From: a virus
Taxonomy: Duplodnaviria > Heunggongvirae > Uroviricota > Caudoviricetes
Virus record (IMG/VR): IMGVR_UViG_2939127364_000001
DNA length: 64,000 bases
Reading direction: 5' to 3' (one strand)
The position numbers and the translations under genes were made by a program. Positions 18,423 through 21,907 of the stretch are shown here, piece after piece; within the stretch, counting starts at the first letter, position 1, and each line of letters begins with the position of its first letter. The notes under the pieces were generated by a model. That model was not told where the DNA came from and made no database searches. It worked only from the letters and a program-made list of their open reading frames with translations.

Positions 18423-18689
18423 TTACATCACCAGTAACTTCGCTTTGGCTCGACCTAAAGTGGTTAACCCAAGAGTTCGGCGGTGATAGCGATTGTCACT
18501 GCGTTGGCGCGTATGCCCTTTCTCCACCAGCCCCTTTTTTATCAGAGCGCGAATTGAGAACTGGATACTTTGCTTGGTTGTCTTGTACGGCAAAACTTCA
18601 AGCAATTCGTCCAGATCAAGTAAATGACCTCGCTCATAACCGAGATTGAGCGTTTTGATAATGTCCTTTTGTTTATCGGTTAACGTCAT
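18423..18689 (-). CDS. Hypothetical small protein, last gene of the ParB/ABC/GNAT operon
   Basis: 88 aa basic ORF, 10 nt downstream of the GNAT-like gene. Confidence 0.3.
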   Translation of the reverse strand: MTLTDKQKDIIKTLNLGYERGHLLDLDELLEVLPYKTTKQSIQFSIRALIKKGLVEKGHTRQRSDNRYHRRTLGLTTLGRAKAKLLVM

Positions 18690-18698
18690 GGCAAATCC

Positions 18699-19598
18699 TT
18701 ATGCCGGTAAAGCAATTTCTAACGGTTTATCCAAAGGTTGTTTGTCGAATGCCAGCAGTGGCAGCGTGTCAGGCAGCCGACGACCAAAGTCAGGGTTTCG
18801 GTACACACCATACAACGGAGACGTAAAGCTCAGGTTGTGAATGTCCTTGAGCAGCTTCACAATGCTGGCCTCGTCCACCAGACTGTCGGCAATGTCCTGA
18901 ATCGTCGTGCCACGATTCCGCCCAGCTTTTGCCAGGGAACTGTTCTTGTGGTAGTCCGCTACCAGATCACGCAGTGCACGGCGACGACGAGACTCGCTCA
19001 TTGCGAACAACTCTTTGACGATCGCCTCGTTATCACCCGGGTCGGAACGGAAATGGCGCTGGAATACACGCAGTGCACTTTCATAGCTCTTCGGTCGCTC
19101 AGGGCGGATGAACTTAAACCCTGCTTTCATGGCGAAGGGATTGTATTTGCTCATCGAGGACTGGATCTCAATGATTGGCCGGTCGTGCATCCTGCTAACC
19201 AGGTTAATCATTCGATAGGAGACGCCGACACCGCGGTACTGAGTGTCCACAACGGAACGGCTGATCACCGCAAAGTTGTTGTTCACGTACCGCCCCCAAT
19301 ACTGGTTGGCCACGGTGGTATTGGTGGTTGGCTTCAGCTTAGGAAACATGCGATGGCGAGGCGCCAGCAGCAGTTTCGGGTAAGCCATAACCACGACGCC
19401 CACCAGCCGGTCGTCCAGTTCGCAGCGATAATACGTTGGCGCAAACGGCTTACCATCCGTCTTGTAGTGCAGCGACTTCAGCGCGTGCCAGTCTTCAACC
19501 GTGCCTTTGGTAACGGTCATACGCTCCAGAAAGTCCAGATGACGCGGGAACTCTTCCGGGCGGTAGCGTTTGATGATGATGCCTGTCATGTCGATCAC
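18699..19598 (-). CDS. GNAT-like acetyltransferase-domain protein with C-terminal extension
   Basis: LVGVVVMAY strand, QYRGVGVSYRMINLV (R-x-x-G-x-G/A motif A-like) and NPFAMKAGFKF (motif B-like). Confidence 0.45.
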   Translation of the reverse strand: MIDMTGIIIKRYRPEEFPRHLDFLERMTVTKGTVEDWHALKSLHYKTDGKPFAPTYYRCELDDRLVGVVVMAYPKLLLAPRHRMFPKLKPTTNTTVANQYWGRYVNNNFAVISRSVVDTQYRGVGVSYRMINLVSRMHDRPIIEIQSSMSKYNPFAMKAGFKFIRPERPKSYESALRVFQRHFRSDPGDNEAIVKELFAMSESRRRRALRDLVADYHKNSSLAKAGRNRGTTIQDIADSLVDEASIVKLLKDIHNLSFTSPLYGVYRNPDFGRRLPDTLPLLAFDKQPLDKPLEIALPA

Positions 19599-19849
19599 CT
19601 ACGCTCGATATTGGCATTGATGAAGTCCAGGCGAAGCGATTCCATCGCCCCAACCATGACGTATGGACGCCCACCGTTATGCCAGCAATCCAGCACACTG
19701 CCGTCGTTGTTGATCATCAGCAGTGCCAGGCTCTGGCTTTTGCCTTCTCTGGCGTACTGGAGTGCTTCTTCCAGCAGGCGGATGACTTCAACGTTGTTGT
19801 TGTCAGCCTCTTTCGATGGCTTCAGCTCTACGATCTTCAAATCAGGCAT
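19595..19849 (-). CDS. Hypothetical protein
   Basis: 84 aa ORF whose start overlaps the ABC ATPase gene stop and whose stop overlaps the GNAT-like gene start. Confidence 0.3.
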   Translation of the reverse strand: MPDLKIVELKPSKEADNNNVEVIRLLEEALQYAREGKSQSLALLMINNDGSVLDCWHNGGRPYVMVGAMESLRLDFINANIERR

Positions 19850-20480
19850 ATTCCACCTTCACGCGTTCTTTGTAGTGCTTGGTGATCTGCATATCCGGGC
19901 GCAGCGCGTTCTTCAGGTCTTCGTGAGTCGTCGCCACCATTACCGTCGCACCAACCTTTCGAGCGGCACGCTGGAGGTTAGATGCCACAACCTGAGCGGT
20001 TACACGGTCGAGAACAGCGCCGAACTCGTCAGCAGCCCACACTTTAGCGCCTGACTCAATCAGTTTGGCAATCTTGAGACGATATTTCTGACCGTCTGAC
20101 ATTTCAGAAGGCTTGCGAACAAACAGATATGCATCGTTCAGACCAGCCATAGATAACAACCCAAGCGCATCACTGGTAGTTTTGCCCAGTTGGTCAATGA
20201 CGTTAACCTCATTATCGAAGGTAAAATCATCGATGGAGGCTACAGACAGCCCTTCATCCTTCATCTGTCGTTGCAACTCGCGCAGCACAACGGATTTGCC
20301 GGATCCGGATTGGCCGGTGATGTACACCACATCGCCCTGCTTCACTTCCAGCTCCAGATTGTCGTAAAGCGTCCACTCTTTTTCGTCCAGACCAAGCCCG
20401 AACGACTCAGCGATTTCCAACGTGCGCGTGGTTTTATTTACGCGTGTCTGAAACGATACGTTGATGATGTATTTGCTCAT
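19842..20480 (-). CDS. Soluble ABC-type ATPase
   Basis: Walker A GQSGSGKS, ABC-signature-like SDGQKYR, Walker B VWAADEF, H-loop-like TTHE; no membrane domain. Confidence 0.7.
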   Translation of the reverse strand: MSKYIINVSFQTRVNKTTRTLEIAESFGLGLDEKEWTLYDNLELEVKQGDVVYITGQSGSGKSVVLRELQRQMKDEGLSVASIDDFTFDNEVNVIDQLGKTTSDALGLLSMAGLNDAYLFVRKPSEMSDGQKYRLKIAKLIESGAKVWAADEFGAVLDRVTAQVVASNLQRAARKVGATVMVATTHEDLKNALRPDMQITKHYKERVKVEYA

Positions 20481-21145
20481 GCAGCCATCTCCCCGGAAGA
20501 GATCTTCTCCGCATATGCCACAAATGCGTCTACCCCGCTTTCTCCTGTCATTTCTTCCATGTGGGCAAGCAAATCACCAACAACAATGGCAGAGCCAGCA
20601 GGGAGCGTTTTAAAGCCCAATACGTCGACAACACGTACTTCTTCCGCTGCAACTTCACGACTGATCTCGGTGTGTTCATCCTTCTGTCGTTTAGTTTCTT
20701 CGCCAAGATCGATAACTAGCGAGTCGGTGTCCATTTCTTCTGTCATGCTGCCAACGAGAACATTCAACTCACGCTCTTCAAAGCCGAAAACCTCGATATC
20801 GTCCAGAACAAGCGACTCAAGCTCTTTTTGTAGCTTAATTGCATCGTAATCAATGCTGGCAAGTCGGTTATCTTCAAGACGCTTCGCACGAACCTCGTCA
20901 TCACTGAGATCATCGCGAACAATAACCGGTACGCGCTCAAGTCCAGCAAAAATTGCAGCCTCACGGCGGCCGTGGCCAGTAATAATTACGTCGTTCTTAT
21001 CGACCGTAATTGGCTGGTCAAATCCGCGCTTTTTAATGGCTGCGGCCAGATCTCGGATCTGCTGTTCATCATGCTTTTTGGCATTCATCTCATAGGGAAT
21101 AAGATCTGCCGGGTCGCGATATACGATTTCAAACTTTTTGGTCAT
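20477..21145 (-). CDS. ParB/Srx nuclease-domain protein
   Basis: ITGHGRREAA (ParB N-terminal GxxRxxA box); start codon overlaps stop of the upstream paralog (TAATG). Confidence 0.6.
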   Translation of the reverse strand: MTKKFEIVYRDPADLIPYEMNAKKHDEQQIRDLAAAIKKRGFDQPITVDKNDVIITGHGRREAAIFAGLERVPVIVRDDLSDDEVRAKRLEDNRLASIDYDAIKLQKELESLVLDDIEVFGFEERELNVLVGSMTEEMDTDSLVIDLGEETKRQKDEHTEISREVAAEEVRVVDVLGFKTLPAGSAIVVGDLLAHMEEMTGESGVDAFVAYAEKISSGEMAA

Positions 21146-21825
21146 TACATACGCTCCTTGTAGTAGTCGACCAGCCATACCAGAGCCTCACCAGCGTTCT
21201 CCATTTCATTACCGGTGTTAATAGCCTGCTCTTTGATGATGTTTTTTATGGTTTCTGCAACACGATCTGACGCATCGAAAGTTACTTTGAAGCGCATGGT
21301 CTGATGTTCCGCACCCACACGTTCGGTTTTCTCTCGTTTGTCGGTATCGACAGGCTCATCACTACCACGAGACAACGCCTCCAGTGCTTCAAGGTCGATT
21401 GCCGCCTCTTTTGCTAAAACCATCGAGATTTCGTCGTCATACGGGGCGATTTCAGACAGTTGATAGTCAAGTTCTGACTGAATTTCTTCAATGAAGCGTT
21501 GCAATGCGATTTGGTCGTCTTCACCGTATCGCTCGTTGTCCACCAGTGACATCTGTTTAGCTACGACATCGCTAATTTTGCCCACAGAAAGCACCGGAAC
21601 CGTTGAAATTCCTTGCTCAATAGCAGCACGCCAGCGATGTTCGCCGCCGAGGATTTCAAAAAATCCATCTTCAAGTTCACGAGCCAAAATTGGCTTAAAA
21701 AAGCCCAATTTTTCGATAGAACCTTTCAGTTTTTCAAAATTCTGCGCACCAACCGAATTGGTGTTCCAGGTATTCGGGCGAAGGTTGGCAACATCAACCT
21801 GCAAAATCGTGATTTTTACATCCAT
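21145..21825 (-). CDS. ParB/Srx nuclease-domain protein (second copy)
   Basis: ILGGEHRWRAA ParB box; first gene of the operon. Start uncertain (ATG 21825 or GTG 21843). Confidence 0.55.
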   Translation of the reverse strand: MDVKITILQVDVANLRPNTWNTNSVGAQNFEKLKGSIEKLGFFKPILARELEDGFFEILGGEHRWRAAIEQGISTVPVLSVGKISDVVAKQMSLVDNERYGEDDQIALQRFIEEIQSELDYQLSEIAPYDDEISMVLAKEAAIDLEALEALSRGSDEPVDTDKREKTERVGAEHQTMRFKVTFDASDRVAETIKNIIKEQAINTGNEMENAGEALVWLVDYYKERM

Positions 21826-21907
21826 TTTATTGCTACAATCCACTAAGTAATCACTTACTTATTATAATAGCCAAATAACATACAAAAGGCACTAAGGAAA
21901 GAGGTTT

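Follow-up and report, generated by a model that had tools for sequence, protein, structure and literature searches.

A conserved phage gene block encoding two ParB-like proteins, an ABC ATPase and a GNAT-fold protein beside the terminase genes of SSU5-type phage-plasmids: a candidate DNA-modification module

GNATs coupled to ABC (ATP-binding cassette) ATPases have been predicted to place an acyl modification, so far uncharacterised, on a DNA base, with phage pT24 as an example (Iyer et al. 2021, Viruses 13:63, PMC7824862, who credit the prediction to Iyer, Zhang, Burroughs and Aravind 2013, NAR 41:7635). ParB-methyltransferase and ParB-acetyltransferase fusions are known, and the combination of a ParB fold with a DNA-modifying enzyme is enriched in phages (Kaljevic et al. 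2025, PMC12704722). The ParB-like phage protein ParB176, which lacks a helix-turn-helix (HTH), is required for the action of the thymine dioxygenase 5mYOX176 on double-stranded DNA, and thymine dioxygenase/ParB loci are often accompanied by terminase genes (O'Toole et al. 2026, PNAS, PMC13229309). Finally, DndB/DndD phosphorothioation brings together a ParB-superfamily protein and an ABC ATPase in a DNA-modification system (PMC10853773). Here we describe a block of genes in IMG/VR virus record IMGVR_UViG_2939127364_000001, of which we analysed a stretch of 64,000 nucleotides (the window). The block encodes two ParB-like proteins (ParB-1 and ParB-2), an ABC ATPase, a small open reading frame (ORF) product (orf84), a GNAT-fold protein and a winged helix-turn-helix (wHTH)-like protein. 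It is the SSU5-lineage form of a widespread phage module composed of a ParB-like protein, an ABC ATPase and a GNAT; specific to this lineage are the split of ABC and GNAT, the duplicated ParB and the added wHTH gene.

Gene content and conservation of the block

The window shares 97% identity with Escherichia phages CMS-2020a, PhiR41_1 and Cyrano, and 87% with Salmonella phage SSU5, and is therefore an SSU5-like phage-plasmid of E. coli. All six genes were recovered on the minus strand, overlapping or abutting, exactly where an earlier note on this DNA had placed them (Table 1). On reading the sequence, the ParB-1 and ParB-2 genes meet at TAATG (1-nt overlap), ParB-2 and ABC at ATGA (4-nt overlap), ABC and orf84 at ATGCCTGA (8-nt overlap), and orf84 and GNAT at GTGA (4-nt overlap; use of the ATG at 19589 would leave a 6-nt gap), while the GNAT and wHTH genes are separated by a 9-nt spacer containing an AAGGA ribosome-binding site. 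The array, which begins 64 bp from a divergent superfamily 2 (SF2) helicase gene and ends 196 bp before the gene of the small terminase subunit (TerS), is tightly packed and translationally coupled. A promoter and terminator scan of the locus gave site numbers not above those of shuffled sequence.

We examined synteny in 67 close IMG/VR loci with sufficient flanking sequence; the IMG/VR scan yielded close relatives only (at least 77% identity) and was used for synteny counts, not for diversity. The helicase, ParB-1, ParB-2, ABC and GNAT genes were each present in 67 out of 67 loci, and the wHTH, TerS and large terminase subunit (TerL) genes in 66 each. Because orf84 was found in only 31 of the 67 loci and is absent from Cyrano and PhiR41_1 (an insertion/deletion polymorphism), the conserved unit comprises five core genes (ParB-1, ParB-2, ABC, GNAT and wHTH) and a variable insertion slot; the six-gene operon of the earlier note thus stands for the five core genes, with orf84 as an accessory. 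No Pfam, NCBIfam or PADLOC match was obtained for orf84. The ABC/GNAT junction is a hot spot, at which other lineages carry unrelated small ORFs (Phage_gp49_66, RyR, DUF2829).

The ABC and GNAT proteins had a median identity of 98% and 97%, respectively, across these loci and never fell below 77%, on a par with TerL. ParB-1, wHTH and TerS were the most variable and fastest-evolving proteins (minimum identity of 47%, 56% and 53%, respectively), and ParB-1, with a median of 86%, was the fastest-evolving core member. Klebsiella relatives were 82% identical in DNA, whereas their GNAT and ABC proteins were 96–98% identical, which indicates strong purifying selection on both proteins.

Relatives of the GNAT protein at 40–55% identity were found, among cultured phages, in one kind only, namely siphophages of 105–122 kb infecting Pseudomonas (nickie, phiK7B1, ZY21), Rhizobium (RHEph10, RHph_N1_15, B1VFA), Stenotrophomonas (ANB28, BUCTxx99) and Xanthomonas (JGB6), and also in Ectothiorhodospira and marine contigs. 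The layout was constant in every distant case examined: a divergent helicase gene, then ParB, ParB, ABC, variable small ORFs, GNAT, an ORF of 85–113 amino acids, a gap, TerS, TerL and portal. The wHTH-like gene was always the last of the block across the SSU5 supergroup. Judging by these comparisons, the block belongs to the core of an SSU5/nickie/RHEph10 phage supergroup. Its gene arrangement is far beyond chance, because the core order next to TerS and TerL is kept in 66 of the 67 close loci and again in distant contigs and in cultured phages whose proteins are about 45% identical; this deep conservation bears out the claim that the genes form one coherent unit. The block was also located on plasmids of 247 out of 5,426 complete E. 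coli genomes (chromosomal copies, 0); it is a common module.

Outside this supergroup, tblastn with the ABC protein detected distant relatives (25–31% identity) in unrelated phages, among them gp038 of Tenacibaculum phage pT24 (29.6% identity, E 3e-11, in the ABC part). According to the Pfam scan, these relatives are ABC-GNAT fusions or adjacent ABC and GNAT genes. A ParB_N gene detectable by Pfam lies immediately before them in Leptospira LE4 (gp14/gp15), Rhodococcus Jace (gp85/gp86) and Arthrobacter EastWest (gp74/gp75). In Lactococcus P335, ParB_N, ABC and GNAT are encoded by separate genes (orf23/24/25); orf26 was rejected as the GNAT, which is orf25. In Gordonia Axumite, gp2 is an ABC-GNAT fusion and gp1 is ParB-like by annotation and by alignment (A2), with no Pfam match. 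In phages with ParB and ABC-GNAT, the block usually lies just upstream of the terminase genes.

Searching 1.84 billion representative proteins with a profile of the GNAT alignment recovered 972 clusters (50% identity) at E ≤1e-3 and 257 at E ≤1e-10. Hundreds of the matches were ABC-GNAT fusions, and many had 410–560 amino acids, with an N-terminal ABC domain followed by the GNAT region including its C-terminal domain. One of them, P0337, is a ParB-ABC-GNAT triple fusion (hhalign probability of 92% for the ParB part), and its gene is flanked by N6/N4 and C5 DNA methyltransferase genes. Two others (P0300 and P0309) are fusions of family-B DNA polymerase, ABC and GNAT; P0309 (L019/L020 8001-11783) was present in at least 24 contigs, within phage replication modules. 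The P0302 gene directly follows the TerL gene, and in Thomasclavelia phage TR-TP1, Enterococcus phage 9184 and Nonlabens phage P12024S the ABC and GNAT pair lies amid polymerase, primase and helicase genes. Other architectures in the family (P0289, P0275) include an intein with LAGLIDADG inside the ABC domain and a C-terminal TFIIB repeat. The phages that carry the family have hosts in at least five bacterial phyla (Proteobacteria, Actinobacteria, Firmicutes, Bacteroidetes and Spirochaetes). Since the trio recurs in unrelated phages as neighbours, as ABC-GNAT fusions and as a triple fusion, ParB, ABC and GNAT form one functional unit, whose constant company is DNA-making, DNA-modifying and DNA-packaging machinery.

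Three single genes near members of this family were also recorded. Directly after ParB and ABC-GNAT, Jace encodes a bona fide aspartate decarboxylase, PanD (gp87, L012 7101-7526, E 2e-33), and Axumite a formyltransferase-family protein (gp3, L011 1805-2452); both are candidates for tailoring the predicted acyl mark or for supplying its precursors. In the third case, an ASCH-domain protein of 86 amino acids (L023 9859-10119) follows an ABC-GNAT protein of 908 amino acids (P0355). YqfB-type ASCH proteins hydrolyse N4-acylcytosines, and this neighbour is a thin hint towards N4-acylcytosine. Fusions of ParB with ASCH and with PUA-like domains have been reported (Kaljevic et al. 2025, PMC12704722).

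Both ParB-like proteins passed the Pfam ParB_N cutoff of 26.3 bits (ParB-1, 49.9 bits; ParB-2, 35.0 bits) and both carried the motifs that the earlier note had read in them. Box II is GGEHRWRAA in ParB-1 (within ILGGEHRWRAA), followed by box III DN, and TGHGRREAA in ParB-2 (within ITGHGRREAA), where GHGRR is conserved among orthologues. Residues N27, G67, D102 and N103 (ParB-1 numbering) were invariant in an alignment of 17 ParBs. The two are paralogous orphan ParB N-domain (CTPase-fold) proteins, and their duplication is old, because each paralogue keeps its own box II variant (GEHR vs GHGRR). ParB-1 matched phrog_723 (E 2e-79) and ParB-2 matched phrog_930 (E 1e-112). ParB-2 was also aligned to positions 29-179 of the 633 of phrog_498 ('DNA methyltransferase') and to the N-terminal part only of the PADLOC MTase_II profile PDLC03229; it resembles the N-terminal ParB module found in phage fusions of ParB with methyltransferase, and also the lone ParB of the other ParB and ABC-GNAT phages. 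Only the ParB part of these two profiles was matched, and no methyltransferase domain lies C-terminal to ParB, as the proteins end after about 225 amino acids. The TIGR00180 scores (43.3 bits for ParB-1 and 43.0 bits for ParB-2) were below the cutoff of 58.45, and in the comparison of ParB-1 with Spo0J/ParB/Noc the N-domain alone was aligned. The net charge is -18 for ParB-1 and -22 for ParB-2, with D/E-rich central regions; such strong acidity is unusual for DNA-binding ParBs. The word 'nuclease', which the earlier note attached to these proteins, is a legacy domain name, and no nuclease feature was seen in them.

The ABC protein passed PF00005 (50.2 bits) and its motifs are complete, as the earlier note had seen for Walker A, Walker B and the signature: Walker A GQSGSGKS, signature MSDGQ, Walker B VWAADE and the H-loop histidine. 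Its matches in PDB were generic nucleotide-binding domains, and it also matched phrog_293. None of the six proteins contained a membrane-type hydrophobic segment (maximum 19-residue Kyte-Doolittle mean ≤1.46) and Pfam detected no transporter domain in the operon; with no membrane-spanning partner, the protein does not qualify as an ABC transporter and is a soluble ABC-type ATPase.

The GNAT fold proposed in the same note was confirmed at residues ~27-170 of the GNAT protein, and its acyl-CoA loop was invariant. Residues ~172-299 form a conserved helical C-terminal domain (~130 amino acids), for which the profile search of PDB gave no structural match. The net charge is +16. Structural matches of the fold include Mu Mom and generic diamine and aminoglycoside acetyltransferases, and the generic GNATs outscored Mu Mom. 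We found that phrog_11143 spans the ABC protein plus the start of the GNAT protein, and hhalign aligned the GNAT protein to the GNAT part of LE4 gp15 (E 2.4e-5); the GNAT protein is the split-off C-terminal half of ABC-GNAT (COG2401-type) proteins. The wHTH-like protein (net charge +9; phrog_900, E 2e-45) had weak matches to Sta1/Lrs14, LexA_DNA_bind and a CARF-associated wHTH, and it is a candidate sequence-specific DNA-binding subunit or local regulator; in distant relatives its place is taken by an ORF of 85–92 amino acids. NCBIfam and PADLOC gave nothing specific for the six proteins, and in PADLOC there was no several-component match to one catalogued system, only isolated weak matches of P-loop and ParB modules.

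Predicted function and competing explanations

The leading and best-supported reading, which we favour tentatively, is that of a ParB-assisted, ATP-dependent acyl-CoA transferase acting on phage DNA, in line with the DNA-modification role that the earlier note had named among its candidates. Its precedents are, for DNA, the GNAT-fold adenine modifier Mu Mom and, for RNA, TmcA and NAT10. The latter are ATP-dependent RNA cytidine N4-acetyltransferases, in which an NTPase module and a GNAT use acetyl-CoA and ATP to acetylate a nucleobase amine. In our model, the ABC domains would dimerise on ATP, each of them paired with a basic GNAT subunit carrying acetyl-CoA or another acyl-CoA, and the dimer would hold two GNAT subunits on DNA. 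The acidic ParB paralogues, probably as a heterodimer, would use their nucleoside triphosphate (NTP)-binding N-domains as a switch or clamp and would load or activate the enzyme on double-stranded phage DNA, like the ParB of the thymine dioxygenase, and the wHTH protein may give site recognition or expression control. Before packaging, the enzyme would transfer the acyl group to an exocyclic amine of a base in replicated phage DNA, and the modified progeny DNA would resist host restriction or other DNA-sensing defences.

We consider DNA to be the favoured substrate because of the polymerase fusions, the replication-module context, the methyltransferase neighbours and the match of ParB-2 to the ParB-methyltransferase module. 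The enzyme appears to be intact, with a confirmed GNAT fold, an invariant acyl-CoA loop and the full set of ABC catalytic motifs. A more specific version, which we regard as a possibility and hold with greater reserve, is that this would be the first ATP-dependent DNA nucleobase acyltransferase: an NTP-gated ParB-1/ParB-2 heterodimer would load an (ABC)2-(GNAT)2 complex that writes an N-acyl mark (e.g. N4-acylcytosine or N6-acyladenine). In other phages, a decarboxylase or formyltransferase would tailor this mark, and ASCH/PUA-like proteins might read or erase it. Such a mark, if true, would be a new DNA-modification class, distinct from momylation.

Several points weigh against an acyltransferase acting on DNA. 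Pfam found no HTH_ParB or C-terminal dimerisation domain in ParB-1 or ParB-2, and the AlphaFold2 (AF2) model of ParB-1, built on a shallow alignment, is confident only at about residues 10-104; homologue searches with ParB-1, as with the ABC protein, yielded mostly enterobacterial sequences that were nearly identical. DNA clamping by these proteins would thus be an analogy and not a finding, because they are acidic, are without a detectable HTH or dimerisation domain and have a model that is uninformative beyond the N-domain. To our knowledge, ABC ATPases do not activate acyl groups, and the role of ATP is proposed by analogy with TmcA/NAT10. The terminase adjacency may simply mark where the replication and packaging modules meet, and the PanD, formyltransferase and ASCH neighbours are single instances each. 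In the literature, we found no report, either way, of a modified base in SSU5-type virion DNA, and no experimental study of a ParB-ABC-GNAT module.

The main rival, which we consider unlikely, is a DNA-targeted protein acetyltransferase, in which ParB and ABC bring the GNAT to DNA and the GNAT acetylates a DNA-bound protein. The target could be a host nucleoid protein, RNA polymerase, a defence nuclease, or the phage TerS, ParB or polymerase, with host reprogramming or the clearing of DNA for replication or packaging as the effect. The nature of the closest GNAT structures agrees with it, but protein GNATs normally need no ATPase, and the recurrent methyltransferase-type ParB modules and DNA methyltransferase neighbours point to DNA. 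Furthermore, conservation over Leptospira, Lactococcus, actinobacterial and proteobacterial hosts argues against a host-specific target.

The position of the block suggests a packaging accessory, in which the ParB-like and wHTH proteins would recognise or cut a packaging site, assisting the terminase, and ABC and GNAT would have a regulatory part. The block lies immediately upstream of TerS/TerL in the SSU5 supergroup, LE4, Axumite, P335 and P0302; a large palindrome, the site in question, lies between it and terS, with the linear records of SSU5 and Cyrano opening inside this palindrome; and the fast evolution of ParB-1, wHTH and TerS is that expected of site-recognition proteins. This explanation is nevertheless improbable. 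Elsewhere, ABC-GNAT is found in replication modules far from the terminase or fused to DNA polymerase, and the conserved acyl-CoA loop would have no part in it. The palindrome cannot be a unique cos or pac site, because another copy lies 31.7 kb away, and its candidacy as such is further weakened by the relative B1VFA, which has 3.6-kb direct terminal repeats and the module at ~53 kb of the deposited record.

We give equally little weight to another kind of conflict module, which would act in anti-defence by depleting a nucleotide or signal or by acetylating an immune effector or small molecule (a polyamine or antibiotic-like toxin), or in the exclusion of competing elements, as the ParB/Srx protein Osa does. 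Some ParB/Srx proteins are reported to take part in plasmid conflicts through NTPase or nuclease activity (Maindola et al. 2014), and consistent with such a role are the diamine and aminoglycoside acetyltransferases among the GNAT fold matches, the weak PADLOC matches of the ABC protein to mad3/mad8 and PtuA, and the variable small ORFs inserted in the block. However, there was no system-level match in PADLOC, polymerase and ParB fusions are hard to reconcile with small-molecule chemistry, and the block, conserved vertically and to the same degree as TerL, belongs to the core of a whole phage lineage and is not a mobile patchy island. The suggestion of a defence system carried by the element is not supported, given the same PADLOC result and the module being core in phages including LE3/LE4.

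Acetylation of tRNA or other RNA during infection, as an analogue of TmcA/NAT10, is very improbable. The coupling of an NTPase to a GNAT to form N4-acetylcytidine in TmcA/NAT10 would fit, as would the methionyl-tRNA synthetase (MetRS) gene of SSU5-type phages, the tRNA-Met gene 2 kb away in nickie, the tRNA-related annotation of the formyltransferase-family Axumite gp3 and the ASCH gene after one ABC-GNAT gene; against these stand the lack of an RNA-binding domain and the constant partners of the module, which are ParB, helicase, polymerase, terminase and DNA methyltransferase genes. Finally, ordinary plasmid partition, with the ParBs and the ATPase segregating the phage-plasmid, is suggested by the plasmid-prophage nature of the element and by PGAP and several records that name ParB-1 a partition protein, but it is effectively excluded, as the earlier note had held, by the profile checks (both ParBs below the TIGR00180 cutoff, no HTH_ParB match, no LG(R/K)GL motif at either N-terminus as read from the sequence, and no ParA), by the ATPase being an ABC protein with a signature motif and not a ParA/MinD Walker ATPase, by a distinct MinD/ParA-like gene elsewhere in the genome, and by the same block or trio in non-plasmid phages and in LE3/LE4, which are described as lytic in the title of the paper on them.

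Flanking helicase, palindromes and other genes

The SF2 helicase gene occupies the same divergent position in L003, L004, nickie, BUCTxx99 and RHph_N1_15, and helicases are also found near ABC-GNAT in pT24 and P12024S; the helicase is a conserved neighbour and a possible partner of the block.

The palindrome between the wHTH gene and terS (copy A) has a related copy B elsewhere in the window (Table 1). The inner arms, CCTGCTTCCGTATATA and TATATACAGAAGCAGG, occurred 4 times in the window, compared with 0.28 expected. Each copy lies between genes of a minus-strand array, and the single arm mismatch present in both would be a G.U pair in the minus-strand transcript. Large inverted repeats occupy the same gap in relatives. 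These features suggest that the palindrome is not a unique cos site but a regulatory or RNA element present in more than one copy, and it is a possible cis element for the block or the late operon. Copy B follows a gene that apparently matches the 'adenine methyltransferase' of Cyrano, with an approximate genome-to-genome coordinate mapping. The rest of the gap (18227-18320) contains two small palindromes (AACAACTTGTT-type), spaced by 25 bp, and CTCTAAAACA in two copies; the terS ribosome-binding site is immediately preceded by a GC-rich hairpin (18245-18266) that has a weak T-tail.

Table 1. Position of the genes of the block and its flanking features in the window
Feature	Position	Strand	Description
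SF2 helicase	21908..23467	+	ResIII/DEAD + Helicase_C by Pfam; divergent neighbour
ParB-1	21145..21843	-	232 amino acids; GTG start; ATG at M7 is the start used in Cyrano
ParB-2	20477..21145 (ORF 20477-21178)	-	222 amino acids from the probable real start, ATG 21145
ABC ATPase	19842..20480	-	212 amino acids; one nucleotide-binding domain
orf84	19595..19849	-	84 amino acids; phrog_796, function unassigned; accessory insertion at the ABC/GNAT junction
GNAT-fold protein	18699..19598	-	299 amino acids from GTG; 296 from ATG 19589
wHTH-like protein	18423..18689	-	88 amino acids; final gene of the block
Palindrome copy A	18322..18420	.	99 bp, AT-rich, imperfect; gap between wHTH and terS
terS (small terminase subunit)	17594..18226	-	First gene of the packaging operon, immediately downstream
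Palindrome copy B	50073-50155	.	Related to copy A

The Cyrano 'ABC transporter ATP-binding protein' CYRAN_75 (window 52973-53617, minus strand) was considered as a paralogue of the ABC protein and rejected, as it is an AAA_28/CoaE-like P-loop protein; it adjoins DHFR and ThyX and is probably a nucleotide kinase unrelated to the module. The Cyrano 'ASCH' gene (window 62614-63258) had no Pfam match.

Significance and comparison with known systems

If the prediction is true, about 1 in 20 complete E. coli genomes would carry a new chemical type of DNA modification together with a new way of delivering a base-modifying enzyme. The module is also present in many Klebsiella plasmids, and its carriers are phage-plasmids that also bear resistance genes. 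It is common, strongly conserved and tractable in E. coli, since E. coli or Salmonella can be used as host for the versions of SSU5, Cyrano and PhiR41_1. There is also an annotation problem. Public records name these genes 'ParB partition protein', 'ABC transporter' and 'ABC transporter ATP-binding subunit', and the PGAP name of ParB-1 in RefSeq E. coli plasmids is 'ParB/RepB/Spo0J family partition protein'; Cyrano and JGI give both ABC and GNAT the COG2401-type name 'ABC-type ATPase fused to a predicted acetyltransferase domain'. Partition and transporter names feed lifestyle and plasmid classifiers. Published screens call phages temperate by parA/parB domains (PMC12466917), and an orphan ParB pair would cause false partition calls in such screens.

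Compared with ParABS, the block shares the ParB N-terminal domain with its box II and box III residues, but it has no ParA beside it, no HTH match, no ParA-binding motif and sub-cutoff scores, and it is core in non-plasmid phages. Dnd differs in that no DndA, DndC or DndE homologues are present here and the ABC protein is without a coiled-coil insert; sulfur-transfer enzymes of the DndA/C/E or SspA/C/D type were absent from the six proteins and their immediate neighbours, and the DndF P-loop was the sole, weak Dnd-type match in PADLOC. With TmcA/NAT10 the homology is probably limited to the GNAT fold; their ATPase is helicase-type, not ABC, and their substrate is RNA. Mu Mom, a GNAT-fold DNA adenine methylcarbamoyl/acyl transferase, likewise shares the fold only, with no specific relationship to the GNAT protein; it works without an ATPase or ParB and is without the C-terminal domain found here.

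Closer likenesses are found among ParB-associated enzymes. ParB-1 and ParB-2 align to the N-terminal ParB module of the ParB-DNA methyltransferase fusions (phrog_498, PDLC03229), but here there is no methyltransferase domain and the effector is a separate gene, for an acyltransferase. ParB176 is, by its description, also an orphan ParB with an NTP-binding N-domain and no obvious HTH beside a DNA-modifying enzyme; its effector is an Fe(II)/2-oxoglutarate dioxygenase, and it is a single ParB, in contrast to the two found here.

The closest likeness is to the predicted ABC-coupled GNATs, with which the block shares an intact ABC ATPase coupled to a homologous GNAT in phage genomes. It differs from them in having separate genes, sometimes with a small ORF between, two ParB paralogues, an extra wHTH gene and a GNAT with a C-terminal domain of ~130 amino acids. 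The earlier note had matched the block to no named system and had put it forward as a candidate undescribed one; it is indeed neither a partition system nor a transporter and corresponds to no PADLOC system, but the ABC-coupled GNAT had already been predicted (PMC7824862), and pT24 was itself recovered in our search. Based on gene content and homology, the module is a split, ParB-duplicated and wHTH-bearing variant of this computationally predicted phage system.

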